NCBI GenBank assembly: GCA_965655095.1
Contig: OZ296648.1
Location: forward strand, 129,394,001 to 129,458,000
Reading direction: 5' to 3'
Origin: Haplodiscus bocki
Lineage: Eukaryota
Length of the DNA: 64,000 nucleotides
Below are positions 21,501 through 45,844 of the stretch, piece after piece (positions within the stretch are counted from its first letter, which is position 1; each line of letters opens with the position of its first letter). Made by a program: the position numbers and the translations under genes. Under the pieces are notes generated by a model. It did no database searches and was not told where the DNA came from. It worked only from the letters and a program-made list of their open reading frames with translations.

Positions 21501-22288
21501 GGTCAGAAAATTTTTTCTCAAACTTGAAAAGTTAACTTCGCGATGAGATAACGCGATCCTGACCGGAAGATCTGGTTCGATATCACGAACGAGATTCCGC
21601 AAAATTTTCACCGCTAAAAACCCGAGCATCAGGAGCCAGCGCAAAGAGACTGAAATTTTCGCAAAATTTCAATTTTGAAAGAATTTTGGAATTGCTTAAG
21701 GTACAACATCGACTGAAATGCGGCTCTATTTGGATCAAATTAAATTGTGCGAAGACTTGTCCGTTTGCCAAACCGTACGGTTGCGCAAGGCAATATGAAA
21801 TGAATTTTAGAAATGTTCACGGTGTTATTCAACAGTTTACAAATGGTTATTGTGCAAAAACTCACTCTACCATATAAGTAATGCTTCTTTTTCGATTTTT
21901 TTAGTCAATAATTCTGTGAAAAAAAAAGAATCAATTTTTGTAAAAAATCGTTTTAAACATGAAAAGTGTCGTGAATTTTAAACCTGGCTGGCTGTATCAA
22001 CGAGCCGTATGCACGTCCCTTTTTCGCGCCTTAAAAAAACCGGTAGTTACCATGTTTAAGAAGCTGACGTTTTGTTTCCCTGGAAAAAACAGCAGCTGTT
22101 GAAAACGTCCTGCTGAAAACAGCAAGTCGAGAACGGCCAAAGTCGGCGCCGCCGTCAGTTTCAAAATTTTCATGGACTCTTTTTTAGATTGGTTTTTTGA
22201 CGGACGTTTTTGTTCAATTATTTATTTTGGACTATTTTTGGTAAAATTGGTTTATGAGAGGAGAGGGCTATTTAAAAAGATGTGGTGG

Positions 22289-24858
22289 TGTCGCGTTATA
22301 GCTAACGCTTAAACAGATATATTATATTTCTTAAGAACATGCAGTAAGCTATTAAACAGGAAATGACTAATGTATAACAAAAGAACTGCAGACGGTATTG
22401 ACTAACCTGGGAGCTGCTGGAGGAATGAAAAAACGCGCAGTGTAAAAGAAAGCTGAAGAATTGGAATTGCACAAAGGGGAGGAAAAGGAAAATTTCTAAA
22501 AGCGTTGGAATGTGGTTCAACACGATTGGCTTGTACGGTCACGTGATCGGTGACGTAGTATAGCTTCATTTTGGAGCTGGTACGGGAAAGCGGCTCGATC
22601 ATTACTTACTTACTCGATTACCGGACGGCGGCCATACTTTCCCTTTCTTTTACTCCTTTTCCTTTTTACCTTGCTTTCTCTTCCTTCTTGCTTGGTTAAA
22701 ATTAATCTGAATTCTCTTCCTTCTTTCCTCGGACGGAAATATTCTAAGACACTTCCAAATTTGTCTTAGCCGCAAATTCTGCTTACAGAGTCAACCTACT
22801 CGTTCTCGATTTCTCAACAAATGATCCTATTGGCTCTCGCCAAAACTGAAAAATACGTGAGCATTCGAGTGAAAACACCCAGCGCACAACCATAATATTC
22901 ATTCGCTTGCTACCACCAACTACCCTACTTCCCACATCTCACACCTAACTATTCAGGAAATCTCTTCACTTTTCTTCCACCAGCAAGCCCGCAAACCATC
23001 AGCACCCGAAAATGTTCAAAGACTTTTTCGCCTGCAGAATTGTCTTAGCCGCAACTCACCAATATCCCGGAATTATTCAAAGACTTTCCCAGCAACAGCA
23101 ACCAGCAGCAGCAATCAGCAGCAGCGACCAGCAACAGCAATCAGCAGCAGCGACCAGCAACAGCGATCAGCAGCAGCAACCAGCAGCAGCAACCAACTGC
23201 AGCAATCAGCAGCAGTAACCAGCAGCAGCGATCAACAGCAGCAACCAGCAACAGCGATCAACATCAGCAACCAGCAGCAGCAACCAGAATTCGTCCTAAC
23301 AGCACCACCTATACGATCAACGCCGGCATCTGTTAGTTATCACTACGGTTCCTAGCCTAGCAGAGGATATCCCGCTAGCAGTTGACCTAGGTTTAGCTGC
23401 CCGGTAGTGGAGTGTAATCACCGCACCGAGGCCCATTTTTGTTACTTTTCCCCTTTTCTAAAATCCCTTTTTGTGACTTTTTTCCCTTCTTGCTAAGACT
23501 TAGAACTGATTGGTAAAAATAAAACACATAATAATCACGACCAGTTGACAGTCCTTATAACTTATGTCCTGGTCGCAGAAAAAAGAGAATAAAATTTAAT
23601 TGCTGGTGTCCCGTGGGTCCAGACTGTATCGGCAGGTGACTAAAAACCAGCTTGAAGATTACGACTGGACGAGTGGAACATCCATACGGTGGTCTTTTTT
23701 TATATTAAGGGTAGTGTAAAATGCATTCAAGGTAAAATCCATGTAATTTGATCTCCCTTTCTCTAAACACTGGCCTATCCAGCTTGAGAATAAAACACGG
23801 ACTAGGAGTTTTAACCCGTTAGCCTAGAAATCTAGAGAAAGACGTGGTTTAGCTAAACGTAAAACAAACCGTAAAATGACTGGCTAAAAAAGGCAACTAG
23901 ACAAGACGGAAAATGTACATCACCCGCACTAGTCAAAAAGTAAAATGGTATATGTCTTTGCTCTATTCACAGACTTTCCAGGTTCAACAGCAGCTATTGT
24001 GGATAATGGTCGGCTTTAATTTTAATATTTTATAATTTTATAATTTATTGGAATTAAAATTTGAATAGTCCAAGATTCTAATTGTGATAATACAGTTTAT
24101 AACTCAATTGGACTGAGTTGAACGAGTCCAATTTCTATCTATGATTTATAGTTTCTTAATTGATTTCAAATCAATTATTTCAACTTTTATATTTGAATTT
24201 ATAATTTTAATTCAGACTAAATTAAAGTAGTCTGAATTAGTTGATGTTTATTACATTTTCACTCCTAAAGTGGAATTAACTCAACGTTAATTAATTTTCG
24301 TAACAGTTTGTGGCATCCCCTTTTCAACTCCTCGTTTAATCTTCTGACTTCTCGTTGAATAAAATTTGGTAACTTCACTAAAGTCACGGGTTAAATTTAC
24401 CTAGAATTTGATAAGATTGAAATGTTGAAATTTTATATAAATTGCTATGCTAATGTTGATAGAAATTAAAAGAGAGAAAGTCAAAAAAATATACTGTAAC
24501 TGTATTGCGTAAAATTTAAGACCTTGTGGCAATTTTCCGTGTGCTATCCCGCACTTACAGCCTCCGACAAACCTGAGTAATTTCCTTTTACGTACGTGCA
24601 GTCATATTTCCTTCAGCAATTCAACATACTGAAATACGTTCACTGATAATTTAACTTTCCTTTGTATTATTCTCCACTATTAGCTCACAAGTCCTTGCTT
24701 GAATACAGGCAATCCCTTTGTTCGCACAGTTATGCAAGGCATACTAAATTGAGACTTAAAAAGACTAGCCGTCGCTACAACGCAGCAGTGCTGACTGAGT
24801 CAACCGCTAGCACAACTAAGTAAATATTAGATTTTCAATACACCTACCACGTGCGACA
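22289..24858 (+). repeat. 5' LTR (2570 bp)
   Basis: TG...CA ends with 6-bp inverted termini (TGTCGC/GCGACA); direct repeat of 40454-42972. Confidence 0.95.
23090..23286. repeat. Imperfect CAG/CAA trinucleotide microsatellite in the 5' LTR
   Basis: Run of cagcagca(a/g)c units; a shorter counterpart sits in the 3' LTR. Confidence 0.9.
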
Positions 24859-24861
24859 AAC

Positions 24862-24880
24862 TGGTGCGACCAGTGGGGTT
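24862..24880 (+). promoter_or_regulatory. Primer-binding site, tRNA-Leu-like
   Basis: TGGTGCGACCAGTGGGGTT starts 3 nt after the 5' LTR. Its complement AACCCCAC-TGGTCGC-A-CCA reads as T-loop/T-stem CCCAC, acceptor strand, discriminator A and CCA, as in tRNA-Leu. The isoacceptor identity is inferred. Confidence 0.8.
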
Positions 24881-25430
24881 TTTGAAAGAACTATAATTGT
24901 GAAGTGTCAAATAATCCTTTCTACACTTTCCCAACCTGGTCATTTCTAATTTTCAGCTTAATCCCGATATTGAGTGCTTTCATTTCATTCATTACAGGTG
25001 CTTCATTTGGTATAATATTTGACTGGGTCTATGATTTTAGCCGGAGCATTTTCTACTCCAACCGACAAAGAATCTAACCCCATGAAGTATTTCATCGAGT
25101 TTGAACCCTCCAATTGAGCTTTACCCCTGTTTTCTATGAATCAATTCAATTTTTGAGGAGATGAATCAAGATTTAATAATTTATTTATATTTAACGCTTT
25201 TAATAGTATTGGTTTTATTGCTAACTCCTCCCCTTTTGGCTGCACTTTTCGAGTTTGACGACACTCTGAATAACAGAAACTCTACTGGTTGGATATGAGA
25301 GGAAACATTGTGCTTTTCCTATATCTCCTGCTGATTCTCTTATTATCTCTACTCTTGGGACCCAACTATATTCTTGCAGTAATTGAACTTGGGCAAACCT
25401 TGAACAAGCATTCTGACGAATAACTGATTA

Positions 25431-25787
25431 ATGGCTCTGGAACTTGGAAAGGATCCTAACCACCACTGGTATTTCTTTGAATTCAACGAATTGAAACCTA
25501 TTTTTCTTTTCTGCCCGTGGACGTTAGAAACCACAACTGAACAATTGAAAGTGATAATAACGAGGATTGATTTCACTCTCAAAAGACAGTTTCGACTCCG
25601 ATTACAAGTTTATCCTGAAGAAGAACCCCTATTCAGTAATTTCATTACATTGACGAGATTCCACGAGCATTTTGCCTCAGCACTCGCCGCTATTCAACAT
25701 TATTACAATTTTCCTGAACTTGGGTTTTCCGAATTGGATCTAATAGTTATCAAATCACTCCTAACTGACCCAGTGGTGAACCAATAG
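25431..25787 (+). CDS. Accessory ORF A1 (118 aa), unknown function, paralog of A2/A3
   Basis: ATG-initiated open frame between PBS and gag. It shares the pattern CPWT...IIT..F...V(Y/H)P....S..I...H....FPE with the next two ORFs. Confidence 0.7.
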   Translation: MALELGKDPNHHWYFFEFNELKPIFLFCPWTLETTTEQLKVIITRIDFTLKRQFRLRLQVYPEEEPLFSNFITLTRFHEHFASALAAIQHYYNFPELGFSELDLIVIKSLLTDPVVNQ

Positions 25788-25830
25788 ATAACCTCAATAG
25801 TACACTATATTAAATTCTTGTTACAATCTG

Positions 25831-26184
25831 ATGCCCCAAAAAATTGAGAGTTCGATAACGCATTTGGACGAGCTACCCGACGAAGAGTGCAAACATATTC
25901 CACTAAATTGCATCTGGCCTATCACCCCCCAAGACACGAATCTAACGGTCATCATAAACTGTTTAAAATGGACCTTCAGTTTTGAACTTTGTGTACGAGT
26001 AACAGCCTATCCATTGGGAACACCAAGCATTTCTAAGCGAATAGACATAGACGATCATCATCCTCTGCTTAGATCGTTAACCGATGCACTCCATTTATAC
26101 CAAGCTTTCCCCTAACCTCATTTAATTTCCCATCAACTCGAAAACTTGGAAGATCTAATGGAATATCTGCATTTCAAATTCTGA
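25831..26184 (+). pseudogene. Accessory ORF A2 with one nonsense codon, paralog of A1/A3
   Basis: MPQKIE...CKHIPLNCIW...WTF...VTAYP...ISKRIDIDDHH. TAA at 26113-26115 replaces the Glu of A3 'PEPHL', and the frame continues PHLISHQLENLEDLM to TGA at 26184. Confidence 0.8.
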
Positions 26185-26192
26185 AAAATTAA

Positions 26193-26534
26193 ATGCCACA
26201 AAAAAATGAGGACCTTCTAACAAATTGGGATAATATCGAAAAAGAATGCCAACATGTTCCACTGACTTGTCCGTGGACCATTACTTGCGAAGGCGGAACC
26301 CTAGCATTCATCATTACGAGTTTGGAATGGACTTTCAACTATGGCTTTTGGATAAGTGTGACTGCCCATCCAAAAGAAAACCCAAATATTTCGAAACAAA
26401 TAAACATAGACAAACATCACTCTTTACTTGAATCTCTATCAGAGGCGCTAAACGATAACGTGAAACTTCCTGAACCCCATTTGAACTCCCACCAACTTCA
26501 TATTCTTGGAGAATTACTAGATTTCTTCTTCTGA
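26193..26534 (+). CDS. Accessory ORF A3 (113 aa), paralog of A1/A2
   Basis: MPQKNE...CQHVPLTCPW...WTF...VTAHP...ISKQINIDKHH...PEPHLNSHQL aligns end to end with A2. Confidence 0.8.
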   Translation: MPQKNEDLLTNWDNIEKECQHVPLTCPWTITCEGGTLAFIITSLEWTFNYGFWISVTAHPKENPNISKQINIDKHHSLLESLSEALNDNVKLPEPHLNSHQLHILGELLDFFF

Positions 26535-26553
26535 GAAGATATAAACCCCTAAA

Positions 26554-27965
26554 TTGGCCAATGCTCATCTAGCTTATCCAGACTTGGCTCTGGACAAATT
26601 TCCTGGCACAGACCCAGAACAGGATGCCGAAGCATTCATCCGCTTGATAGAGTGCAAGATTAATTTTGCTCTCGGAACCGAACCAGACGAAGCTGACGAC
26701 GCACATGTTATCTATCTTTTCAGAAAGAAGGCTCTATTTTCCTCATTGCTTAGAAGACCAGCAGCTTAATGGTAAGGGAGCACTATCCAAGATGCAATGA
26801 CTTGGAATGAAGTCCGAACACTGTTCATAACCAGATTTTCAGACAGAGGGAAGAAATTTAGACACAGAATGGAAGTTGAACATTGTATACGAGCTGATTG
26901 AGAGGAGATTCGGAACTTTCTCCAACGAATAAAGAAAACAGTGGAAAATGGCTGGCCCGACGATATGGCTGGAGTTGTAGCAGCTGAACAGGCCGCTGAA
27001 CGCACCGCACAAGCTCGCCAGAGAAGACAAAGTTACATCGATTACACACTAAAGGGACTTAGACCAAGATACCTTCAACGAAAAAGCTGAAGAATACTTG
27101 ATGGAACACCCAAATGCAATTTGGAATGATTTTTCAATACACTTAGTTAACAAAGATGAATCTTATCAAGTCTCTACTAGCTTCCTAAATGACGAAGAAC
27201 AAAACAAAGCTCAAAAGGCCTCTTTGGCACAAGAACTAAAAACCTACCAATTGAGCTGAAGAAACACAGAGTAAACGCTTTAAGAGGGAAACCAGAAACC
27301 TATTGAACCTAACCAGAAAGGAAGACAGAATGCCACACGGTTTTGCGGACATTGTAAAACCAAAGGTCACACTCCTACTTTTTGCAGAAAAAAGATATGA
27401 GATGAAGAAGTCAAGAAGTTGCAGAATGAAGCCACAGCCGAGAAAAAAGGTTACGTTCACCCAAGATTACAACAAGAGACGAGGACCCTCCCACAGATCG
27501 GGGAATGGGACTAGACGGAACGATGATATTGGGGCTATGATGTGAACCCCACGATCATTTACTACAGGAAAATTCCGGCCAAGTAATCAGAGTTCCAGCA
27601 GACCTTTCGAACGAAGAGACTAGCTGAATAACAACAGTGATCGATATAAAGACTACAGAGCGAGATCACAGTATCAGTCAGACCAAGACCAATCCACGAA
27701 GTGGGGAAGTAACGATAACTATTCACGATCGCCTTCAACCTCACGACGAGAGTCCTCATTGACAGAGTTCCGCAGACAACCCTGATCAAATTCGCTTAAC
27801 CCTTCAGTGTTTAACTGGTTTGGAAAGCGAGACCCGAGCGACAATATATAATACGATAAGAAGTTCCCAACTTACAAAGACGGAAACGAGCCAAACGTGG
27901 TTCGATTCACTACAACAGGCGATGAAATTAAAGAACTATCGGGACAATGCCCTATAAATTACTAA
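26554..27965 (+). pseudogene. gag: gag (disrupted by stops and frameshifts)
   Basis: Capsid-like segments (LDKFPGTDPEQDAEAFI, TWNEVRTLFITRFSD, EEIRNFLQRIKK) and a CX2CX4HX4C knuckle CGHCKTKGHTPTFC at 27344-27385. Ends at TAA 27963-27965. Confidence 0.88.
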
Positions 27966-30900
27966 GGTCTCCGAGTTCAGCTACTAATTAGTCCAAGAAA
28001 TCAAGACTCAGCTTCAATTTTTTCTACTTCGCCACCGGAGACACTCAAAAAGATAGTGGCTTAGAAATTGACTTCATGCTAGATGCTGGAGCTTCTAGCT
28101 CAATCATAAACTATCGAACCTTTTGGGAAATCTGCCAAACCCAACATCCAATCACGGTCAAAAGAAGCACTACACAAACAAGGACTTATTCTGGTCAAGT
28201 TATACCTATGATTGGTTTTGCAACATTAACATTAAGTTACGACCCACATGGACAATTTTTTTCCCTCTAACCGTCTGGAAAACCGAAATGAAACCTCAGA
28301 ACCTTCTAGGCATGGACTTCTGTCAGAAGCAAGTATCTGGCTTTCATTTTGATTTATCTAGAATTGCACTTAAAGAGCCATCAGAAACTGTGTGTTATGG
28401 AAGCCTCCATCAGAATAAATTGTATCCTTTCATTTCGCAAAACCTAAGAATACGAACTCTGCATGCAATGCACATTGCAGCCAAGAGCGCAAGATGCTGG
28501 AAATATTCTCCTGAAGATCCTCACGCTCATTTTCCTCCTGGATCCACTTTTCACCCAAATCGCAATGCTTTCGCTACTGGACTATCCTTTGTCAACGTGC
28601 TATGTACTCAACCAGAATCAAAGCTACCTATACTAATAGAAAAAAACAAGAATCACCAAGTTATTTGCCTAAAAGCCGAATTGGCTTTTCATCCCTAGAT
28701 GCCTCCGACAAAGATGAACCAAAATATCAAATACGAGATCTTTATGAGCTGACAAAATCAATCCTCTCAACACATCAACAGTACAACGATTGTTTCCTAC
28801 TACTTTCTACAATTTCTTCCCAGTTACCCGACGAATTCTTGCAAATAGTCTATGGTAACGAAAATTCGATTCTTGAACAGCCCAATTCGATCGGACATTG
28901 TATCACCGCAGATGCTCAGATGAGTAAAGGGTTTGCGCCATTCTTATCAGAAAGAGTTCCGCGGTTAAGGAGAACATGTAGACGAGCCAACCTTCTTAAA
29001 GACCAAGTATTCCCCTTCTGGGTTTTTTCTTCAAGTCGACACATCTATAACCTTGTGACAAAGGAGAATAATTCGGATAAACCTTACCTGCAAACTCTCG
29101 TTACAACATTACAAAATATGCAAGCACACGTTACAATGCACGGAGTTTCAACAATTGCCATACCAAAGATTGGATGTGGTCTTGACCAGATGAACTGGCA
29201 GGATGTAGTCAAACTCCTACGAAATATCTTTGCGTATTCAGATTTACAAATCGTGGTTTATTCATTGGGGGAACACGCAATTCATGCTATGTCAGCTGAG
29301 GGAGATCCGGAGTTCTATGCCAAAAATCAAATAGACCGATATAGCGAAGAATTTCATATGAACGAAAGAGAATCGGAAACCAATTCTATCAGTGACGCTA
29401 AGTCCTGTCAACCAGATTGCGACGAACAATTTCCCATTTTACGCCCGAAAGAGCAAAACGAAGCTCTTATGGAGCACTATCTTCAATACCAGCCTAAAAA
29501 GTTAATTGATTACTTTAAACAATTTGATTTTCAGAACTCAGACGAAACGGATTACCAAATGACTCTTCTCATTGATATGCTAATCGACTCGAAGGTTGTG
29601 TATTCCCTCCACAAGTTCGATGTTGGGAAAACCCCGGCAGAAATTTCATGTTACATTGAAACCGAATGTGGAGTTGAAACGTCAACAAGCGAGTAATGTT
29701 CCGCTACACTTGAAAGTCAAACTTGAGAAACTACTAACACAACCTAAGGACGCCGATATCTTTCGAGAAATGGGCGATGACGGCGAAATGAACTAGTGAT
29801 TGATGCTCATTACCTGAAATCAGTAACTGACCTCACAAACTACTCTTGGCCGTTAGAACCAGTTCAGATGATTATGACCAGAGTGAACGGAAAGTTCTTC
29901 TCAGTCAGTGACTTGTCCTGTGCCTACCATCAGGTACCCCTTAGCTTCGAAACACAGAAATTGACAAGCTTCATCATCGGCGAAAGACAATTTACTTCCA
30001 CCCGAGGATTTTACGGTCTGTGTGGCCTACCAAATTTCTTCAGTCGCTTAATGACGATTCATTTCGACCCACTGATCAAGAAAAAACAGGCAGTTATCTA
30101 CATTGATGGCACCATCATGCAATCGCAAACCAGAGGTGAGATGTCCACCATCATCAATGAGTATCACACCCTTCTGCGGAAGGCTGGCTTAAAAGCTGCC
30201 CCAGACAAGACGTTCTTCTTTCTGAGAAAAGTAAAGTTCCTGGGACACGTTATTTCACCAGATGGGATTCAACCAATAGCAAAACGCGTAGACGCCTTAC
30301 GGAACCTCAAGTCACCCCAGAGTAAGCGACATGTTATGAAGGTCTTGGGATGTCTTGGTTTCTACAGCTGCTACATTATGAACTTACACGTTGATAGTCA
30401 GCCTTTGTATGACTTAATTAAAGATTCTACCCTATTCCACTCGACTGAAGAACATGAAAAATTGTTTAACTCCATTAAGGAACGAATTCACAGAGAAACA
30501 ATTCTAGCAATTCCTTCTACTGATTACCCGTTTCATGTTCACGTGGACTCTTCAAATGTTGGTACAGGTTGTATTCTTATCCAACTAATCCCTGAGGGAA
30601 AGAGAATTATCTCGTTCAATTCGCGTGTACTTGACAAAGCAGAACAAGAAATGTCCACTCTTCATCGAGAACTATGTGGAATCGTATCAGCTCTCCAGAC
30701 ATACGAACACTATATTATTGGATCACCATTTCCCATCTATCTCTATTCTGATCAAAAACCAATTCTTTATTTATGGGGAGGCAAAGAACAACTATCACAT
30801 TGCTTTTTCCGATATCAGGTGATCATTGCAAAATTCCAAAACTTGAAGATCACTTGGACGCCTGGCTCCAACTTAGCCTTTCCGGATATACTCAGCAGAA

Positions 30901-33389
30901 ATGTCACGATCGAGGAATATCAGACGCACCAATTGCAACACAAACGTATTTCGCGTGACATTGGGTTCTTTGACGAACATGCCACTCCGGCCACATACCA
31001 AAATCAACATGAAGACAACCCTAATGATACCTGCAACGACTTCTACCCAATAAAGTACAAACGTGGCAAGGAAGGCAAAATTATGAGATTACAAAACGAC
31101 GGCGAGGACTTTACCGTCAGTAGCAGGCTTGACAAATTTCCAATCACCTCAATCCAACAGGCTTCAGACTGTTTCCAGACGGGAAGATTTATCAATCAAT
31201 TTACACAAATATGTGGGCGAGAGACCCAATCAAATGCATCCGTCAAAACATCTAACACTGAGTATAGTTCAATCACCTCTTTTAGCCCGTCCGAAGATGA
31301 TACGGCAGACTCGACGAGCCCCGGCGATGACTCAAACCTCGTCAGTACAGACTCTGAAGATGACAACATTGTATGTGATATCAGTATTCAAGCTGACCAA
31401 GCCCGACTCTGTCAAGCCAAACAAGCTCACGACGTGGTGCTCGGGAAAACAGATGCTTCGCTAGTCAAGAAATTCCTAACACCTTCTCATGCTCCTCATC
31501 TGGAAACCAAGGCATTAATCCAGAAACTTCACGAAGTTGCGAAGACAGCAGATATTGATGTATCAACCATTCTTGCAGATAAAATGAATGACCAGTACTT
31601 GGTACTGTACATTCTTGGATTCGTAAAAACACTCCTCCCGATATTAAATCACCAGAGATACAAAAGTCTAAAGGTCTTTTACGATATTGCCACGAATTCA
31701 ACAAACTTCTCATCGAAGAAGGTCAGCTCCTTTGCTATAATGAACCGTCAGACAAGCTAGAAGAGCAAAATCTCCGTTTTTGTCTCCCTTTATCCCTATT
31801 CCTTGCATGCTTCCGACTGGGACACTACAACGAAACGGGTGGACACATGGCAGCAACCAAAACCTCTGCCAATGCCAAGAGTTTTTACTCTTGGCCTCGA
31901 ATGTTTGATTGGATGTGTGCTTTGACAGCCGATTGCCTTACCTAAACAGAACAACAAACCTAAACCGAAGCATCGAAACCAAGTTGCACTCGAAGAATGG
32001 CAAAACGAATCCGTTCCTTTCCGCACTGTACACATCGATTACAAGGGACCCATTCACCCGACTAGTGCTAGTAACGTCCATTGTCTTTTAATCGTTGATG
32101 CACTTTCTCGATTTTTGATGGTCTGCCCAGTACGTAATACAACAGCTCTAGCAACCATTACAGCTGTTGAAAAGTGGACCTTTTCTTTTGGAATCTCACA
32201 ATCAATCAACCACGACCGAGGTACTGTTTTCATCAATACAGAGTTCATCAACTGGACCAAAGAACTTGGAATTACTCTATGACTTCGTACAGCTTATTCA
32301 CCCTGGACAAATGGTGAAATTGGAACCCAGAACCAGCATATTGCTCGATACTGGAGAAACTTTCTCAATGATGCCGGAAATAACTGGTCGTCACTAGCAC
32401 CGAAGATTGTATTCGCCCACAATTCAAGCGTCAACAACACAACTGGGAAAACCTCATATGAAATTGTCTTTGGGACCAAACCACAAATACCTATGTCACT
32501 CAAGCTGGGACTTTATCGGAATAAACACAAACTTTGCTGTTCTAAGTTTTGTAAGGACCCCCTTTCTCAATCTCATGGTGAGAACAGCTTGAAAAACAAA
32601 TTGTTGGACAACCTACTTCAACCGCAATTATCACAAGCTCTTTTAGAAAGAGAACGAACCTTTAAACGAATTTATTCCTCAAACTTCGAACGATGCCGAG
32701 AACAGACCGAGCAATCACACGCTTATCGCAATCGTTTCAAGTTGAAACACCACCTTGAGATAGGACAGAAAGTACTTTACGAAAATCACAAACAAGATCT
32801 CACACGAAGCCAAAAATTTCAACAGCGAAGACTCGGACCCTTCACCGTTACCAAGCGCATCACCAATACCCTCTATCAAATTCAGGACGATAAAGACCCT
32901 ACAGTTATCAAAACTGTTCATCGAAACCACCTTGTCGAAAACTATCCTAAAGAAAGATCTCTACCCGCAATGATAGAGGAATACGTACCTTTTAGTCATC
33001 AGGATTATAACTTGTACGAGCGTTTCATGGAACAAAGCACCGAGGATCTAAATAACCCAAACACAACAGAAGATCATGTCACCTTCCAATTCCCAATTCA
33101 ACCGTTACGATCTCTTTCGTCCATAAACAAGCCAAAACGATCGAGTATGCATAGTAACGATTCAGGAATTACTTCCACATTTGTTTCTTCTTGCACCCCT
33201 GTGCTATCATCTGCAACTATTATGGAAACGTCGACCCCCTATTCATCTTCTTCTCAACAAGCACAAACTGCTCAATTGTCAGCCCGGGAACATCTTAGCC
33301 CGATTCGACAATTTATTCGTAACAGTGCCACACGCATGGCTAGAAATAGCATTGAATCGCGCTCTAAGGGGCCGAAATACAACCGCTGA
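27962..33389 (+). pseudogene. pol: pol polyprotein: protease - macrodomain - RT - RNase H - spacer - integrase (disrupted)
   Basis: Protease LDAGAS...LLGMDF. RT DLSCAYHQ, FYGLCGLP, YIDG (30099-30110, decayed YIDD) and VKFLGHVI, with an apparent deletion near 29795. RNase H VDSSNVGTG, RELCGIV, SDQKP, PDILSR. Integrase GH..GGH..W..C, HIDYKGP, HDRGTVF, SPWTNG, GPFTV...VHRNHL. Confidence 0.95.
28842..29261 (+). other. TARG1/OARD1 (C6orf130)-type macrodomain embedded in pol
   Basis: SIGHCITADAQMSKGFA, IYNLVTK, KP..L, IAIPKIGCGLDQMNWQDV and IVVY match the TARG1 motifs SLAHCISED.RMG.GIA, IYYLITK and MPRIGCGLDRLQW..V. The domain is open and in frame. Confidence 0.9.
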
Positions 33390-34305: not shown

Positions 34306-34789
34306 CCTGCAAAATTTTTACCTTAGCCTTTGGAACCTACGACCCCCCCGCTCTTAACGCGACGCCTTTATCCTATTCAGAACAACGTTGCTTCCTCCTG
34401 CCAACAGCTCAATGATACGAAATCAAAGCGTTTCCGACAAGAGGTAGGACTACATTAGTCCCGAACCCAAAAACAGTGCTCAAGGACTCAAGGATTCTCC
34501 CACAGTTGTTGATTAGAATTTTGTCTTACACTTACCAACGCCTATTTTACGCTTTCACCCCCGGAAGGCCCTGCAGTGACGAGCACAGCAGAACGAGGAA
34601 ATGAAGAGGATGGCACCAAAGTTTTGTTCGTTTTACATAAATTATTTGGTTTTTTTAATTAATGTTACGAAAAACCTAATTTCTTAAAACTCCTGAAGTT
34701 TAGATAGTACATAGTTACCTTATATTTGTAGTAAATGCCTAATTTGTACATCGTTTGCATTGAAATAACTGAAGAGTACATTCTCAGAT

Positions 34790-35023
34790 TTGCTATGGAA
34801 GATGTATGTCAAAAATGACGAAGAATTAAAGTCAATAAAAAGAATCGAGTTGAAATCCGACGCAACAACGATCCTCGTTCACACTATAACAGAAGAGGGA
34901 CAAGAAGAAGAATACAAGTGTTTTTCTGACTCTCCTAATTATTGCCATCTCCGCTGTCTATTGTCTGCAGACATCTACATTATCAGTGATATTATTTGTG
35001 GCAACAAGGGGCATATTTTTTAA
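34790..35023 (+). CDS. Accessory ORF B1, unknown function, paralog of B2
   Basis: Open frame (first ATG at 34802); aligns with B2 using a single gap. Confidence 0.55.
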   Translation: MLWKMYVKNDEELKSIKRIELKSDATTILVHTITEEGQEEEYKCFSDSPNYCHLRCLLSADIYIISDIICGNKGHIF

Positions 35024-35245
35024 TTGACACTCATACTCCTCCGAATTGACAATCAATTTCAGTGTATTGCGGGCTTAACGTTCATCACAGGAACGAAAGA
35101 CTTCATGGTAACAACCCAATCTACTAACAACGATCAGATAACAACCTTTATTTGCTCACCCGAATCAGCTCATTATCCTCTCATTGAAGCTATACTCAAG
35201 AACCCTCCCCCGAACCACATTAAAAGACAGAACGGAAAATGTTAA
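35024..35245 (+). CDS. Accessory ORF B2, unknown function, paralog of B1
   Basis: Directly abuts B1. Shared pattern D-x5-I-x13-V-x-T...(Y/F)xCxx(D/E)Sx(N/H)Yxx(L/I)xx(L/I)L. No ATG start. Confidence 0.5.
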   Translation: MTLILLRIDNQFQCIAGLTFITGTKDFMVTTQSTNNDQITTFICSPESAHYPLIEAILKNPPPNHIKRQNGKC

Positions 35246-35314
35246 ACGATTGTTTGCAACAGACATTTTTTTCCAGCAGACCTGGAGTGTGGGAACACAG
35301 AACCCATCTTTTGA

Positions 35315-35725
35315 ATGCATCAATTAGGGATATCAATCTCACAGTCACACACAAACACACCACTCAACAGAGTTAATTTCAATTGTAAGTGGACTTCAAC
35401 TAATTTGGGAGAGTGCAAAATCACTAATATTTGTCGGCTACCCAACGGGAGCACCTTACTAGTGCGAATTGACCCGATTGTGAATCTACCCACTGTATTA
35501 GTTATCCCAATACCTGCACGCACAGCAGAATTCGTCAACCTCTTTGTGACCCTCACAATTGCCGGTCGGAACATGGCCACTCCGACTTTGGACACGACGG
35601 AAAACCAAAGTTTGGTAGATCTCTTGGCGTATATGAAAGATAACCTTGGGACCTACACTGGGGTGTCACTGATAAACCTATTGCACGAAACTTGCAATCT
35701 TTCCGACCTGGAACTCAAACGATAG
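35315..35725 (+). CDS. Accessory ORF C (136 aa), unknown function
   Basis: ATG-initiated open frame with globular-protein-like composition, between pol and env. Confidence 0.5.
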   Translation: MHQLGISISQSHTNTPLNRVNFNCKWTSTNLGECKITNICRLPNGSTLLVRIDPIVNLPTVLVIPIPARTAEFVNLFVTLTIAGRNMATPTLDTTENQSLVDLLAYMKDNLGTYTGVSLINLLHETCNLSDLELKR

Positions 35726-36176
35726 ACGAGGAAGGTAGGTGAGTTGCTCAAAACCCCTACGAAGTCTACAAATCAATCAATCTACTTCACCAATAAAAAA
35801 ACCTCTGATGGTTCGACGTAACGGCCAACTGGGAACTACAAATCATCAAGACCCAGATAGTTGGACGTGCGAGCCAATTGGGAACTACAATCACCTATTA
35901 CCTATGGTGGAGGTAAGGTAAATTTTAATTTTGGCACCTCTTTGCGACACTGGTTTTAGTCCGGCGCACTTTTTGGTAATACCGGTTTTAGTCCGCCACC
36001 CCTTTACAAAAATCTCCACGTAGTTATTTAGAATAGTGTAGCGACTCTATAAATATAGTGCTACCGCTTCGGTGTTAGTGCCTACGAAGTAGCCGGTAAA
36101 ATATACTACGACTGTTCCTTTTCTTTTGGTAGTTGTGATGAAAAATTTCACTCTACCCTTCCCATTTGCTAAAGCA

Positions 36177-38341
36177 ATGCATGTAAAAAACCAGGTTTTG
36201 TTCTTCATTATTTTAGCCAGCTTCATAAGTGGCAAGCTCGAAAACTCAGATTTGCACAACATAGCCTGCCACCTCAAAGTGACACATGACTGTAGAGACA
36301 TGACAGAGAATAACCTCTACGCTTTAAACTAAGTTTCCAAATGCAACATTGCTCCCGAGAACCTAGAAGCCAGCAGTGCAAAATTTACGATGTACACAAA
36401 ACATTTTCGACAAGAAATCAACGCAGCAGTTTGTGGAGTCAATAATCAGAGTGGAGAATGGCACTGTGGCTCTGGAGACAATTCAAGCACGGACGCCCAT
36501 CATACAGGAGGAATAACAACAGACTTAACCGTTACAGCATCTCAATGGAGAACCTTGGCGAGAGGAGGTTCAATCACTTTAAAAGATGAGACACTCGAGT
36601 TCAAGAAAGGAGTATAAACAACGGTAGTTAAACACACAGATTGTGATGACGATGGAGCGGACCTCAGCGACAAATACAGAAATGAATGCAACTCAATTGG
36701 ATGGGTAAATCGCAAAACATTTGAATGCCATGTATAAGACGTCGTGCTTAAAGTACGTACTAAGAATGGGAAAGTTATGAGCAAAGACGGACTACAATTA
36801 ACGTTCCCTTTGGGACAACTTAGATGCGATGCTGCCTCATTCGACCCTTATGCATACCCATGGGACGCCCCTGACAACTGCGTATTAGCTATTCAACAGA
36901 AAAAAGACGTTAACATGATCAAACAAGAAAAAACAACTAGTATATTGTCAGTGGACGAAACAACACCAGTCAGTATCTGTTCGAAGTAAAAACGAAAACC
37001 GAAGTTTTCTGTAGCAAGCCAGTACAAGTATACCCAACCAACTACGATTCATTACACGTGGTTATCGTTTTTGGCGGATTCGATCTAGTTTCTAGGAACA
37101 AAATGGGATTCTCAGGAGGAACACAACACTTACAATACTACCAGCCTTCAGTTTCATCTGGCGGCAGGCTATTCGTACACAAACCTGAGTCACCCCATAC
37201 AGATAATCCTAACTCAGAAACGCCTCATTACCTTAACCTAGACTACGAACTCCATCACGGAACAAAACTGGATTATCTGTTCTTCGAAAGCTCAAAGATG
37301 CTTGAAGGCTCCGAGATACATCTTCTAAAGAATTTATGCGAACAAGAAAGAACTCAAATTTTGACTACTCGGTTGCTTTCAATGGAAAACTTACGTTTAG
37401 CTGGTTATATGCTAACTGGGAATCGCTCCATGTTCCTCAGTACCGATGGCAGCCTCGCTTTGTTATATCACTGCCCTCTGATGCGTTCTCCACCACAGGT
37501 GATGAACCAATGTTATAATAAATTTCCTATATTCTACAAAAATGCAATCCTCTTCGTCGACCCAATCACTCGACAAACATACCCAGATGCTCAAGTTCAA
37601 AATTGTTCTGACAGGATAAGGAACCTCTTTCAATTCGACAAGGAAGATGAGAACTCGTAGTTCACTATTACACCCACTCTAGAACACAGGAAACGACCAG
37701 CAAAATTTGGACCAAAAGATGTAACCCCTGTATACAGAAGAGCTTTTGGTGGAGCAGGAGATGCTGGAATCTACACACGAGCACAGTTATCTGATTTCTG
37801 GGACAAAATCCTTATCAGCGCTGCTTCAAGGAAAGCTTTGCAAAAATTTTCAAGAGAACTCATTGTCCTCAACACAGCAATTCATGGACCAGAACAATTT
37901 TCTTATTATGCCCCAAGAACGGATTTCTATGTGGACAACATGATTTCCCCCAGTTACTTCAAGAATCAGTTCATGGACACGTTCGGATCTGTTGCTTATG
38001 TTTTGGAACTTTTTGGAACATATTTCTCTTGCTTTCTGTGTATCAAACCCATCGTTGATCTTATAGTCATGATTTTGCGACACATGGAAATTAACCGTCT
38101 TACTGGTGCGTCACTTGGATTTGGCCAGACACTACTGAGCGTTTCTTACAACTTATTTTTAACGTCTATTCCAACGTCAATGTTCAACCCCCAAGCTCCC
38201 TTTTTGCAAGCGTTGGAACCTGAACCAACGCCCACAAGAATAGAAGACGAGACTAGAGATCCAGCAGATGAAGATAAGAAAAAGCAAGAGCATCTTTGTC
38301 CAACTGTTCATTGCCCCACTACGGCTCGTTCCCCTGTTTGA
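36177..38341 (+). pseudogene. env: env-like glycoprotein related to Chuviridae glycoprotein (class III fusogen-like); 4 stops and 1 frameshift
   Basis: Signal peptide VLFFIILASFISG. Cys-rich ectodomain motifs HDC, WHCGSGDNSS, LRCD...YPW...DNC, TKLDYLF, LCEQER, HCP...QCYNKFPI...FVDPITR...NC and AGIYTRAQL. C-terminal TM segment VAYVLELFGTYFSCFLCIKPIVDLIVMIL. About 720 codons when the fragments are joined. Confidence 0.82.
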
Positions 38342-38442
38342 TTAGAATAATATGAGCGTTATCCTTGATGGCTTTTCCAATAAATCATTAATTTCATTTT
38401 TTAAAAAATCTTTTCTAGAATTCAGACGACCAACCACTAGCT

Positions 38443-39054
38443 TTGCTGGAACACGACGAAATCGACGCGCTGCTCAACGGAATTGACTGGCACCAACCCT
38501 TATCTCCACTTGATTTAAATTTGCCAAAGGAAACAGATAATATTACCCTTCTTTCTTCTTCATCTCCTATCTCTCCAGTTGTTTTGCCGAATCAGCCACC
38601 AAACCCGTTAATCGACAAATTCTTCCAACCCTTAACAAATACCCCGATCCAATTTACAGATCACCCTGCGACCTCACGGCAAGTGTCACGAGTCAAAATG
38701 TTATTGCCTTCACTGCGTAGTTCCAAAGCTCATTCTAATAAAACCCAATCGGAGGAATCACAATCTAATCCTTCTTCGTCGAGACGACTCCGCTCTAATT
38801 CAAAAGCTCTGGGAACATCGACTCAAGACGCTCGAGCATCTCTTTCACGACCAAGTCGATTTCAGCGAAATCAGCAAATTTCCAGACAGAAGCTGAGAGA
38901 AAGTCGTTATCAGCGTTGCAAATCTGTTCGAAGGCCTCGATACAACACCTATTTACACTACCAGCTAACTAACGCATTTTCTTCTTGGGAAATCGTATTT
39001 TGGGATTATAAAAGACAGGAGTATACCATTCAGAACTCTGTTTTATCATCATAG
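38443..39054 (+). CDS. Accessory ORF D (203 aa), Pro/Ser-rich then Arg-rich, unknown function; C-terminus probably truncated
   Basis: Long open frame between env and the TRAF gene; non-ATG start. Confidence 0.5.
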   Translation: MLEHDEIDALLNGIDWHQPLSPLDLNLPKETDNITLLSSSSPISPVVLPNQPPNPLIDKFFQPLTNTPIQFTDHPATSRQVSRVKMLLPSLRSSKAHSNKTQSEESQSNPSSSRRLRSNSKALGTSTQDARASLSRPSRFQRNQQISRQKLRESRYQRCKSVRRPRYNTYLHYQLTNAFSSWEIVFWDYKRQEYTIQNSVLSS

Positions 39055-39173
39055 AGACTTGTGGTACCCCTGAGAGCTATCGAAGTACAGCTCGTCGATT
39101 GACACTGAGTCCACACGCACCCATATTCAAGCCGACAAACTGATCACGATTATTTACAATATATCGTTCTCAG

Positions 39174-40400
39174 TTGCTTACAGAAAAGGATGCATCTACT
39201 TCACAAGATAATATTGATCTTACTTTTACGACCAAATGTCCTAAAACTTCTCCGGATCTCAATAGCCCTACAGTATCACAGCAACTGCATCTATTAACCA
39301 CTCAAGTCAACCAACTTAGAATAAACTCTGAACAAGCACTGGAAAGAACAAAGCCCCTAATCCGAACCTTTCCGTTAGCTAATATCAAGCATTTCCAGTA
39401 TCTTCACGCAGTTCAACATCAAGTAGCTCAGTTCTTCGTAGATCTTAACACCGAGAAAAGCGAACGCCTTAAGCTACGCACAACTATTTGCCAACTTGAA
39501 GATGAGCTAACCCAATTGTGTCGACAAGTAAATGAACCATCATCTTCTTCACTTCCTGTTTCCTTTACAGTCAACCCACCGAGCTCTGCTGCTTTTCAAG
39601 ACTCTGGTGCCCTAGACAATATCCAAATATCGAGGCCTAGGGTCACAATTACTTCAAAAAGAACATCGAGCACTACGTCTCGATCTCGGCTAATTGAATC
39701 ACCATAAGCTCCCCCATCAACTCAAACAATATCTGGACCTTCTTTAGATCTAGAAACCCGAGTCCGACAATTGGAAGAAGAAATTACCAAGGCAAGGGAT
39801 GGTCGCGAAACGATTGCATCCATTTACCGACCTCAATTCGACTTTCTTGATGATAGAATTCGAGCCTTGGATTCTGGAGGCACAGACACTATCTTGTGTA
39901 AATTAACTTCATTGAAATTGGTCTTCGAAACCGCCAAATCTTCTGCTTGGCTGGACAATGCTGCCCAACACCCCAGTACTCATTATAAGAGCTCAGTGTA
40001 CCGCACACACCCTTACGGCTATAATTTCTTTGTTCAGTTCTTCCCATACGGTCTCGACTCTGCCGCTGGAAATCACGCTTCAATTATGTTCGTCTTAATT
40101 CCCGGCGATTACGATGGTTTACTAACGTGCCCGTTCCCCAAAACGATTCAACTCTCGGTCCGCGATCAACTCGACCCCCAAAATGCGTGGACTATTGCCT
40201 TCGCACCCTCCGAGAAGATATCCTTTCGAACGCCTACCAGAGAACCATTGCCTACCCTGATGAACTTCAACTTCTTCCCAAACAGCAAGATGTTCAGCAA
40301 AACTCAAAACTTGCTTTTAAAGGATGCATTTTATGTGGAGATAAAATTCACCGACCTACCCAGCCGTGAAGTCGCCACACCTTCCTCATTTAAACCATGA
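39174..40400 (+). pseudogene. Coiled-coil + TRAF-C (MATH) domain protein with no RING or zinc fingers; one internal stop
   Basis: ORFs 39174-39707 and 39771-40400 are in the same frame, split by one TAA. Heptads are visible (LRTTICQLEDELTQL, LETRVRQLEEEI). The MATH domain at 39885-40349 has YRTHPYGY, GNHASIMFVLIPGDYDGLLTCPF, LSVRDQ, SFRTP and DAFYVEI, matching TRAF motifs FYT..YGY, GTHLSLF.V...G..D.LL.WPF, L.L.DQ, SF.RP and D.IFI. Confidence 0.9.
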
Positions 40401-40453: not shown

Positions 40454-42972
40454 TGTCGCGTTATAGCTAACGCTTAAACAGATATATTATACTTCTTAAG
40501 AACGTGCAGTAAGCTATTAAACAGGAAATGACTAATGTTTAACAAGAGAACTGCAGACGGTATTGACTAACATGAGAGCTGCTGGAGGAATAAACTAACG
40601 CGCAGTGAAAAGAAAGCTGAAGAATTGGAATTGCACAAAGGGAAAGAAAAGGAAAAGTTCTAAAAGCGTTGGAATGTGGTTCAACACGATTGGCTTGTAC
40701 GGTCACGGTGACGTAGTATAGCCTCATTTTGGAGCTGGTACGGGAAAGCGGCTCGATCATTACTTACTTACTCGCTTACCGGACGGCGGCCATACTTGTT
40801 TCCTTTTATTTTACTCCCTTTACTTTTTACCTTGCTTTCTCTTCCTTCTTGCTTGGTTAAAATTAATCTGAATTCTCTTGCTTCTTTCCTCGGACGGAAA
40901 TATTCTAAGACAACTCCAAATTTGTCTTAGCCGCAAATTCTGCTTACAGAGCCAACCTACTCGCTCTCGAGTTCTCACCAAATGATCCTATTGGCTCTCG
41001 CCAAAACTGAAAGAATACGTGACCATTCGAGTATAAACACCCAGCGCACAACCATTATATTCATTCGCTTGCTACCAACAACTACTTACTTCATCGAGGC
41101 GAAACTCTCCTACCCACAGCCCTCACCTAAATATTCAGTAAATTCTTCACTTTTCTTCCACCAGCAAGGCCGCAAATCATCAGCACCCGAAAATATTTAA
41201 AAACTTTTTCGCCTGCAGAATTGTCTTCGCCGCAAATCACCAATATCCCGGAATTTTTCAAAGACTTTCCGAGCAACAGCAACGAGCAGCAGCAACCAAC
41301 AGCAGCAATCAGCAGCAGCGACCAGCAGCAGCAATTAGCAACAGCGACCAGCAACAGCAATCAGCAGCAGCGACCAGCAACAGCGATCAGCAGCAGCAAC
41401 CAGAATTCGTCCTACAAGCACCACCTATACGATCAACGCCGGCATCTGTTAGTTATCACTACGGTTCCTAGCCTAGCAGAGGATATCCCGCTAGCAGTTG
41501 ACCTAGGTTTAGCTGCCCGGTAGCGGAGTGTAATCACCGCACCGAGGCCCATTTTTGTTACTTTTCCCCTTTTCTAAAATCCCTTTTTGTGACTTTTTTC
41601 CCTTCTTGCTAAGACTTAGAACTGATTGGTAAAAATAAAACACATAATAATCACGACCAGTTGACAGTCCTTATAACTTATGTCCTGGTCGCAGAAAAAA
41701 GAGAATAAAATTTAATTGCTGGTGTCCCGTGGGTCCAGACTGTATCGGCAGGTGACTAAAAACCAGCTTGAAGATTACGACTGGACGAGTGGAACATCCA
41801 TACGGTGATCTTTTTTTATATTAAGGGTAGTGTAAAATGCATTCAAGGTAAAATCCATGTAATTTGATCTCCCTTTCTCTAAACACTGGCCTATCCAGCT
41901 TGAGAATAAAACACGGACTAGGACTTTTAACCCGTTAGCCTAGAAAACTAGAGAAAGACGTGGTTTAGCTAAATGTAAAACAAACCGTAAAATGACTGGC
42001 TAAAAAAGGCAACTAGACAAGACGGAAAATGTACATCACCCGCACTAGTCAAAAAGTAAAATGGTATATGTCTTTGCTCTATTCACAGACTTTCCAGGTT
42101 CAACAGCAGCTATTGTGGATAATGGTCGGCTTTAATTTTAATATTTTATAATTCTATAATTTATTGGAATTAAAATTTGAATAGTCCAAGATTCTAATTG
42201 TGATAATACAGTTTATAACTCAATTGGACTGAGTTGAACGAGTCCAATTTCTATCTATGATTTATAGTTTCTTAATTGATTTCAAATCAATTATTTCAAC
42301 TTTTATATTTGAATTTATAATTTTAATTCAGACTAAATTAAAGTAGTCTGAATTAGTTGATGTTTATTACATTTTCACTCCTAAAGTGGAATTAACTCAA
42401 CGTTAATTAATTTTCGTAACAGTTTGTGGCATCCCCTTTTCAACTCCTCGTTTAATCTTCTGACTTCTCGTTGAATAAAATTTGGTAACTTCACTAAAGT
42501 CACGGGTTAAATTTACCTAGAATTTGATAAGATTGAAATGTTGAAATTTTATATAAATTGCTATGCTAATGTTGATAGAAATTAAAAGAGAGAAAGTCAA
42601 AAAAATATACTGTAACTGTATTGCGTAAAATTTAAGACCTTGTGGCAATTTTCCGTGTGCTATCCCGCACTTACAGCCTCCGACAAACCTGAGTAATTTC
42701 CTTTTACGTACGTGCAGTCATATTTCCTTCAGCAATTCAACATACTGAAATACGTTCACTGATAATTTAACTTTCCTTTGTATTATTCTCCACTATTAGC
42801 TCACAAGTCCTTGCTTGAATACAGGCAATCCCTTTGTTCGCACGGTTCAGCAAGGCATACTATTTAGACTTATAAAGAATAACCGTCGCTACAACGCAGC
42901 AGTGCTGACTGAGTCAGCTGCCAGCACAACTAAGTAAATAATATATTTTCAATACCCCTACCACGTGCGACA
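40454..42972 (+). repeat. 3' LTR (2519 bp)
   Basis: Direct repeat of 22289-24858, followed by the GTGG TSD. Confidence 0.95.
41272..41402. repeat. Imperfect CAG/CAA microsatellite in the 3' LTR
   Basis: Homologous to 23090-23286 but shorter. Confidence 0.9.
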
Positions 42973-45844
42973 GTGGTCAAATTTCTGAAAAAATATATGG
43001 TTGGTGGCTGATTTTTTTGAAGAAAACTCTTTGATTTTAGCCATTGTTAAAAGTATGTATCAGGAAAAATTATATTTGGTTACTGTTATTTGGAATCTTT
43101 TCTGTTAACCGTATGGGACCTGTCGTAATGGTTTAGCTCACGCGCGAGTGAATTTTAGCCAATCAGAGACGAATCCACTTCTGCGTGGGAGGTGGGGTTC
43201 ATATTCTCGTTACTACTGGTAGAGGAGAGTTAACATAAAGATCCGTTGTATGTTATCTAGAAGCTTTTTTGGTAAGTTCTACAGCTCTAGGGGAAGGCAG
43301 CAGTCGAGCCGTAAAATTATGGTTAAAAGAAGAAATGTAGTAAGCAATGTGAGTTCATCCGTCAAAAAAATCAAGTAGAGTAATAATCGATATTTTAGGT
43401 AAATTACATAAAGGATGCGCTTACTGAAAACCTGTTGACTGTGTCAAAAATTTACAGCTAAATTTCCAGATGTTGGATGCCACTCAAACTCAAATGGCAT
43501 TTAGAAAATTCGAATGCAACTTGAACACCATTTTCACTTGTTGAAATGTTCTCTTGTTCACGGGTGTGTATTTTTTGTGCCTCAGTTAATGGTGAGTGAT
43601 TCTTTTTCGGCAGTGATGTATCACATCAGTCAATCAGTCAAGCAATAAATAGGGTGGCAATCAAACGAAAACAATTTTGTCGAGCAATTTATGGCATATC
43701 AACGTCATAGCGATTGTTTACGAGAAGTGAGCATAAAAAGAAAAAAAAGATTAAAAATTCAAGACACAGGATTTTAGCAAAAAGAAGAAAGAATACTCAC
43801 CAGGCGTAAATCACCACTGGATGTGCGCTCTGGATATTTTGTCCAAAAATCAAACGATAGAAATGGATGTACTCATTTTTGACACTCCTCTGGACCTGTT
43901 GTGTGCAGTCAACGTGTTTTGTCTGTTGAACTGAATTGTGCATGAGCATTCAAATTGGCTAGTTGAGCTGTCTAATTATATGAGAGAAAAAATTCATTTT
44001 CTGATTTGAAAAACTTGGCAAAACAAGATTCTGATTCAATGCTTGGTTGGTTAACATGTGATGACAAAGGTACATATGTACGATTTAGCAAGTAAATGAC
44101 CAAATTTCTACCCCGATTTTTCTTAATACCATCCATGAAGCGGCTATTATTCGAAAGTTTTCGAATTTGCTTAGATCAAAAAAATAATCACACAATGTCC
44201 CTAATTGCAATGTGTTTTTTGGAAAATTGCCGGCTCGTATAATTTCAATGTTTAAAAAACAAACTATGCAAAAGGGCGTACTAGAAAAATTTCCCTTTGT
44301 CCTGATATTCAAAGATATTGATTGACTGCTAAAAGTCTGCAACTTAGTTTGAGAAAAAAAATTGTGTGACAAATTTTGGAAAACCCTGCAAATGTCTTTT
44401 GACTATCGTTTTTGAAAGCAGAACACGATAAGGAGGTTGCAAGTTTTTGCTTTTTTTCCGAGTGGCTTGAAATGGAATTTCGTCAGCAATTGAATCTTAC
44501 GATCTCTGGGTGAAACTTGCATAAAATACATTTCGTTCTCAAAAACTTGCTTCTTTCTCTTTACACGCTTTCGGAGAACCATATTTCCAGTAGTCTATAT
44601 ATAGTTCACTGAGAAATCATATTGGATCGTATATCTAGATTTTAGCTCCATAAAATGAAGTTAATACCCAAGATATTTCAAAGATTTCCTACACAACTCT
44701 TGTTTGAATGGAATAATCTTGCGTGTATAGAAAAATCTTTCAAGTTCCTTGAAAGAATCTTGCCAGGACATTTAAGAATCTTCCAAGGAGCTTGCAAGAT
44801 GTCTGATCAACTTACCAGAAGTTATTCGCAAGGAAGTTGAACAAATCAGAAGTCTCGTGCTAAAATCTTCCAAAACATGGCATTTCTTGAAAAGTTCTTT
44901 TAATTTTACAGCAAAGCTAACTCCAATTTTGCAAAAATTTTGCAAAAACTTGAGAAAAGAAATTTCTCAAGGATCATATATGTTCTGTCTGACAGATTAA
45001 CCAGGGTGTGTAACTTTTCACAAGTTTGGGGCTCGGGTTGCATGGGATAATGGTCTGGTTGCTAAAAAGAATAATTCGTGTTATTAGCTGATGTTCAGCT
45101 GTTATGAGTTACATTTTCAACGTTTTTCATCTTCGCAATTCAATCTATCTTCCATAATCGTGCACCAACTTATCATATTTTTAAAAGACTGAACTTTCAC
45201 CATGTTATTGTCTCATCATTTGCAAAAATGAACGTAAAATTCACCACCAAGATTAACTGAAGTTTTCCAATGCACTTGCATAACCTATTTAATCAGTAAT
45301 GCATATCATCGATTTTTCAAATTCTCTCGCATTAAACTCTTTTCTTTGACTTAACTCCGACTTTGCTCCGGTTTTTGGTCCCGGTTTAACGCTTTTCACG
45401 ATGGAAACCAGAGTGTTACGATACTTGCATTACTAACTAAGTCAAACTCCATTGGAGGTAACCGTTTTTTCTGAGCATCGGTGACGGCTGGAATCAAATG
45501 CTTCCAGCTTTGCAGCATACTTGACAATACATGTTTTGTCAATACGGATGAGAGTTAAGACAAGTTTTGCCATCAGTTTTAGGAGACAGTTGCTTTCTCT
45601 ATCGTGTATCTTGAAAATCATGACCCCTTATAATGTCGTGAAAACTGATATAACCTGAACGCATACCTTTATAAAAACGGAAAGAATCTTTAATAAAAAA
45701 ATAAAAGCCTCAACGAACCTCCCCAAGAAAAAAAAATTGATTGCAACTTTTGAACGCTTCTGTACCAATCAAAATATGTTTTTCTCAAAGTTTTATGGAA
45801 ACTGACCTTTGAAACGAACCTCGTTTTGATATTTCACTTCATAT

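Follow-up and report, generated by a model that had tools for sequence, protein, structure and literature searches.

The 64-kb window analysed here contains a 20.7-kb env-bearing Ty3/Gypsy element on the forward strand, in which a TRAF gene is the last gene. The element is bounded by a 4-bp target-site duplication (22285..22288 and 42973-42976), inside which lie a 5' LTR of ~2.57 kb with inverted 6-bp ends (22289..24858, with a PBS-like TGG word near 24862) and a 3' LTR (40454..42972). From 5' to 3', it carries small ORFs, protease, macro domain, RT, RNase H, integrase, further small ORFs, env, a reading frame that we call orfX, and TRAF. Specifically, three paralogous small ORFs (25428..26531; 104-119 aa, 27-48% identical, no Pfam match) precede a broken gag-like/pol region (26545..33386) that includes a weakly matched protease (27992-28267), the macro domain, RT, RNase H and integrase. 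Small accessory ORFs in the pol-env interval (34769..35722), found in 68-75 of the 75 copies sampled below, are followed by env (36037..38338), which encodes a Monjiviricetes-type fusion glycoprotein (PF24664) and has stops and frameshifts in this copy; pol and env are broken here, as TRAF is. The LTRs, target-site duplication, protease-RT-RNase H-integrase order and an env 3' of pol are those of a Ty3/Gypsy element with env, and Ty3 was closest to the element RT among solved structures. No tRNA genes were found within the window.

The element has several further features. The LTR pair is a mosaic, with ~94% identity in the first 1 kb and last 0.2 kb and 99.4% over the intervening 1.4 kb; since the target-site duplication is intact, the pattern points to gene conversion between the LTRs or homogenisation during assembly, and it would skew LTR-based dating. 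The macro domain (28515-29693, in the protease-RT interval) scored above its cut-off (PF01661, 24.5 bits) and is a possible ADP-ribose counter-defence module. At least six small accessory ORFs (25428-26531 and 34769-35722) have no Pfam match, and they appear to have been swapped among element lineages: orfA2 is 83-84% identical to that of the window in certain copies for which env identity is just ~55%. In each of the three lineages, a conserved block with a TATA word follows the predicted splice donor and precedes the env start (L016 oriented ~4290 and equivalents); it is possibly an internal env promoter. Tandem copies of the element occur at a spacing of 17-18.5 kb (G000 C7:15.31-15.37 Mb, C271 and C2:46.20-46.22 Mb). 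Elsewhere in the window, the region at ~47000-50000 is A-rich and decayed; two frames there look like integrase by eye (48720-49097 and 49393-49857), and these frames gave no match to the RT and integrase of the element.

An earlier note on this DNA had described the TRAF gene as an intronless ORF with a coiled coil and a TRAF-C domain, free of RING and zinc fingers and ending about 50 bp before the 3' LTR. A Pfam profile search placed TRAF-C within 39708-40397 (PF21355, 50.9 bits vs a cut-off of 27.4, E 2.6e-13), with PF22486 as the second match, and the fold agreed. The nearest solved structures to the window TRAF-C are TRAF5 and TRAF4 (E ~1e-11), and the predicted fold of a natural relative with an open frame matched TRAF1 and TRAF4 in Foldseek (E 2e-13). 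By Pfam, structural relatives, Foldseek and TRAF3 alignment, the TRAF-C (MATH) domain spans 39888..40352. The TRAF-N coiled coil ahead of it (39747..39887) is helix 215-257 in the predicted model and aligns with TRAF3, and further 5' lies a helical/coiled-coil domain common to the host donor family discussed below (39279..39533; E 2e-10 and 4e-10). No zinc-finger or RING profile matched the window ORF, which has few cysteines and no intron, and its stop codon (40398-40400) is separated from the 3' LTR by 53 nt. The domains and the missing intron thus agree with the earlier description; a single open ORF does not, as in-frame stops at 39141-39143 (TGA) and 39705-39707 (TAA) break the gene. With these two stops, and with no start codon at the start site of the TRAF family, the window copy is dead. 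We also rejected 39174, the start given previously: the family start lies near 39099 with a conserved N-terminal segment, and the 5' part thereby omitted is the most conserved segment of the gene. The helical region returned only TRAF-like leads from the ESM Atlas, all below 0.8, and the viral contigs searched for relatives of P0164 held none.

Next, we asked how the gene fares across copies. A TRAF-C search of the 1.5-Gb genome gave 4078 candidates at first look, and we scored 150 of them; neither figure is a copy number. To avoid selection by the gene under test, we picked copies by integrase, taking every second row of the best 150 of 6261 integrase candidates, and the resulting sample of 75 leans toward well-preserved copies as it comes from the best-scoring rows. 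TRAF-C was found 3' of env in 73 of these 75 copies. The TRAF frame was open over at least 400 codons in 54/73, compared with 36/74 for env and 41/75 for 3' pol, both of which are longer frames. For sequence comparison we used 54 frames (53 of those with at least 400 codons and one slightly shorter), which form three lineages (36, 9 and 9 frames; 34-39% identical). Pairwise dN/dS was calculated at dS 0.15-1.2, with 719 of 1431 pairs omitted for saturated dS and the remaining pairs being non-independent. TRAF-C gave 0.13-0.16, the helical parts 0.11-0.16 and the linkers 0.27-0.49; in the first 12 codons the value was 0.01-0.07, with ample synonymous change. Elsewhere in the element, dN/dS was 0.08-0.09 for env and 0.06-0.11 for integrase. 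Presence, open frames and low dN/dS therefore identify TRAF as a long-kept component of the element and no chance passenger. The possibility, raised in the earlier note, that the ORF is confined to this copy and evolves neutrally does not agree with 73/75 sampled copies and a dN/dS (~0.15) far below 1.

To find relatives of the gene, we performed a profile-free search of 1.84 billion representatives. Distant relatives recovered in this way have the same extra helical domain as the element ORF, and using one of them as a query we found two host genes, L085 and L086, in the same genome. Both have an intron inside TRAF-C, at a site that the element ORF reads straight across, and a spliced relative (P0251) confirms the exon join there; from the missing intron, we infer capture through a spliced mRNA. 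The upstream exon of L086 encodes the first half of a TRAF-type zinc finger, with a possible start codon 15 codons 5', and the named relative in Convolutriloba macropyga (LOC142342694, XP_075250303.1) lacks a RING and has a single zinc-finger-like word. The ~19 kb upstream of L085 and of L086 likewise showed no RING, and no element marker genes were found within ~10 kb downstream and ~19 kb upstream of them. The donor would therefore have been an already RING-less TRAF of an acoel-like host. Because the donor family as seen is RING-less, the element itself probably did not remove the RING; we rejected RING loss as an innovation of the element, and the proposal that its removal created a dominant negative is weakened. 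The proposal of a transduced host gene stands, given the absent host intron and the retention and constraint described above.

Phylogenetic analysis agrees with this origin. The element ORFs are monophyletic (100/100) with the host genes outside, and the element ORFs together with the acoel RING-less family are separated from four canonical-type TRAFs at 100/99, a value that carries a long-branch warning. A clade of the element with canonical TRAFs was rejected (AU p=0.0013), so that in a tree with host TRAFs the element ORFs sit beside the RING-less family and not with the canonical ones. The element protein is a member of the TRAF family and is not a canonical TRAF2-6: it falls outside their clade and differs from them in lacking a RING, zinc fingers and the groove glycine considered below. 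We show, then, that this env-bearing Ty3/Gypsy family carries TRAF as an accessory gene, which stems from a RING-less host TRAF and is under purifying selection in three old lineages.

Other members of the donor family were also observed. P0259, P0261 and P0262 are intronless 325-aa members that form clusters of 9-104 sequences; they lie on long contigs of another assembly and have no close matches in this genome. They are possibly a second capture of the donor family; P0261 and P0259 sit near L086 in the free tree but may share an origin with the element ORF (AU p=0.18), and the intronless 104-member cluster of P0261 hints at more than one uptake of this family by mobile elements. Decayed, dispersed copies of host-type TRAF (L087-L091 and L093) are also present; the 10-20 kb around them contained no element marker genes.

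The strand equivalent to the TRAF receptor-binding strand (40254-40274, within TRAF-C) reads TLMNFNF, as previously proposed, and aligns with ASGCPVF of TRAF3. The host strand had been given as ASGCP.F; in the local donors it is SVGILHF, which is the proper reference. The glycine kept in both the donors and TRAF3 is replaced in all three element lineages, the serine loop differs, and the strand differs between lineages with little variation within them. Given the lost glycine and these lineage differences, the suggestion of altered specificity holds once it is measured against the donor strand.

Between env and TRAF lies orfX (38419..39099; ~205-227 codons, dN/dS ~0.28), with one internal stop in the window copy. 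A predicted splice acceptor (38410..38418), consisting of a pyrimidine tract and AG, marks its start in 54/57 open orfX frames. Ahead of env, a predicted three-codon exon end (Met-Val-Glu) with a splice donor (35904..35917) is present in 69/74 copies and in all lineages, the donor-like GT following Met-Val-Glu in the same phase. The orfX frame is Met-free in 54 of the 57 open frames, and AUGs are depleted in all frames of orfX (1.4-2.8 observed vs 5.2-7.7 expected), a depletion that TRAF, env and pol do not show. In 40/43 copies the TRAF start overlaps the stop of orfX, with two geometries. Donor, acceptor, AUG depletion and stop/start overlap fit a spliced bicistronic message, which would carry orfX and TRAF. 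This predicted two-gene layout was missed in the earlier note, as was the N-terminal motif described next; the note had allowed that a spliced transcript might add RING exons, and as far as tested the predicted exon adds three codons, leading into orfX and not into the TRAF frame. The orfX product begins with an acidic, Leu-rich segment, contains a stretch rich in Arg and has a conserved aromatic block at its C-terminus; it gave no usable match in Pfam or the ESM Atlas, and by its motifs presumably resembles Rev/Rec-type export proteins.

At the TRAF N-terminus, a PAM2-like motif (39099..39134; degenerate and without its start codon in the window copy) stands in place of the donor's zinc-finger end. 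Its family form is M-x-L-N-P-x-A-x-x-F-x-P, and it is the most conserved segment, with 66-72% identity between lineages compared with 50% for TRAF-C and 6-18% for the adjoining linker. The motif word occurs in all 54 open frames defined independently of the motif, in 0/134 env, pol and orfX frames, and in 49/20000 shuffles; a separate count of 54/54 is partly circular because a looser form of the motif had set the gene start. PF07145 (PAM2) was the sole Pfam match in four of eight N-terminal peptides (13-18 bits vs a cut-off of 20), with no match in the other four. The PAM2 consensus is LNxxAxEFxP, with L, N, A and F as anchors and a Glu that faces solvent in the LARP4B complex (PMC7356810). 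The element keeps the four anchors and the following Pro and does not keep the Glu, and its TRAF N-terminus is predicted to be disordered. Though under the Pfam cut-off, the motif is PAM2-like by its anchors, and we predict from sequence that it binds MLLE domains. These domains are reportedly restricted to PABPC and EDD/UBR5 (PMC9753129). We found a UBR5-type MLLE-HECT gene in the genome; an MLLE homologue search returned just two UBR5 fragments of identical sequence, and an exon-wise search, which may overlook it, did not locate a host PABPC MLLE. One PABPC candidate (L234) turned out to be another RRM gene. The host UBR5-like gene (L084) has a PAM2-like word of its own directly 5' of its MLLE exons.

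Our favoured reading, to which we assign a probability of about 0.5, is that the TRAF protein is an MLLE-docked trimeric adaptor for TRAF-C clients. A spliced subgenomic message that omits env would carry the gene as its second cistron, reached by leaky scanning or by stop-restart where orfX ends, and by analogy with the TRAF family the protein would trimerise. Three flexible N-terminal PAM2 motifs per trimer could then dock on MLLE domains, and multiple PAM2 motifs may work by concentration (PMC11754739). The TRAF-C groove would hold a host client, which would be retained on mRNP granules or ubiquitinated to the benefit of the element. We favour this reading because it is the only one that explains the strongest constraint in the gene, on its new N-terminal word; this constraint could also serve another partner. 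As for the MLLE protein, PABPC on poly(A) mRNPs is a tentative candidate, and the HECT ligase UBR5 a somewhat less probable one.

A different possibility is that the protein is a decoy of host TRAF signalling via JNK or cell death, acting through mixed trimers or by occupying receptor sites, with the N-terminal motif merely localising it. The coiled coil and TRAF-C are both under selection, as a decoy would require, and the host genome has 10 TIR-domain matches and at least one zinc-finger TRAF gene with a RING-adjacent exon (L113), so a decoy for outputs other than NF-kB is possible; planarian Burro elements, moreover, combine TRAF, BIR and BCL2 motifs (PMC6431247). We nevertheless consider it doubtful, since the RING was probably missing before capture, a groove strand that has lost its glycine and varies by lineage fits poorly with mimicry of a host ligand, and the strongest N-terminal constraint is left unexplained. 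A 2026 survey also reports that TLR, MyD88, IRAK and NF-kB are absent in acoels (PMC12849515), which makes an NF-kB decoy unlikely if the host is an acoel, as its homologues suggest, and weakens the earlier suggestion of dampened TLR signalling to NF-kB. The words TRAF and TNF are not in the main text of that survey, which does report NFAT-type Rel domains in acoels. Because such domains are known there, we discount our own Rel-domain search of the genome, which had no match and was too insensitive to count.

Less probable still is a self-serving assembly factor, in which TRAF-C would bind a product of the element itself (Env tail, Gag or orfX) and PAM2 would bring the polyadenylated RNA of the element to where assembly takes place. 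A groove strand that varies between lineages and little within them is what would be expected of a partner co-evolving inside the element, and the TRAF gene is coupled to orfX; to our knowledge, however, most LTR elements assemble without a comparable protein. That the gene is a neutral passenger, or that the host genes were domesticated out of the element, is highly improbable and largely refuted already: the window copy and 19/73 others are broken and the host genes contain a single very large exon, but dN/dS is far under 1 at all distances, the host genes fall outside the monophyletic element ORFs, and they have relatives in other species and retain introns and a zinc-finger word.

The predicted MLLE-docked adaptor can be compared with several known systems. 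Among RING-less TRAFs, vertebrate TRAF1 was the top Foldseek match of the model; it is only ~24% identical and works in the NF-kB pathway reportedly missing in acoels. The acoel TRAFs L085, L086 and XP_075250303.1, in which we found no RING, have the helical domain, the coiled coil and TRAF-C in common with the element ORF. They differ in having introns, the SVGILHF groove strand and, where seen (L086 and XP_075250303.1), one zinc-finger word, and the sequences available for them lack the N-terminal PAM2-like word. PAM2 proteins such as Paip1/2, eRF3, ataxin-2 and LARP4 likewise carry an L-N-x-x-A-x-x-F-x-P word in a disordered segment, whereas the element word is without the consensus Glu and sits on a TRAF protein of a mobile element.

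The closest precedent is Burro/GYPSM1, giant planarian Gypsy elements described as carrying MATH_TRAF_C and a mononegavirus-like fusion env and suggested to meddle with apoptosis and ubiquitination (PMC6431247). TRAF capture by Gypsy elements is thus already known, and both elements are large, high-copy and equipped with an env of similar type. According to the published description, however, the Burro TRAF is part of the ORF1 polyprotein or of an ORF located upstream, its env is in frame between gag and pol, and BIR and BCL2 accompany TRAF. Here, TRAF is a separate last gene 3' of env with a PAM2-like motif and a donor in the same genome, and no BIR or BCL2 match was found in the frames scanned. 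We consider it probable that the capture described here was independent of Burro. In a literature search of incomplete coverage, Burro was the sole TRAF-bearing LTR element and no PAM2-TRAF fusion was found; acoel repeat annotations may already list the present element. The present element differs from Burro in the position of the gene, its traceable donor, and the combination of TRAF with a PAM2-like motif.

Captured genes of LTR elements are mostly known as bare domain matches; here, a single genome shows the donor family, the lost intron, selection in three lineages and a likely expression route. A retained TRAF with a putative docking tag points to host mRNA or protein-disposal machinery over a classic immune pathway. 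Innate signalling in acoels is largely unexplained, and a long-kept TRAF on a very abundant element points to what such elements must counter. It is a speculative possibility that an acoel retrovirus-like family uses PAM2 to recruit UBR5 (or PABPC) to the clients of a captured TRAF, much like a lentiviral accessory protein that recruits a ligase. If true, the TRAF-C client would mark an anti-retroelement pathway that acoels use in place of NF-kB.
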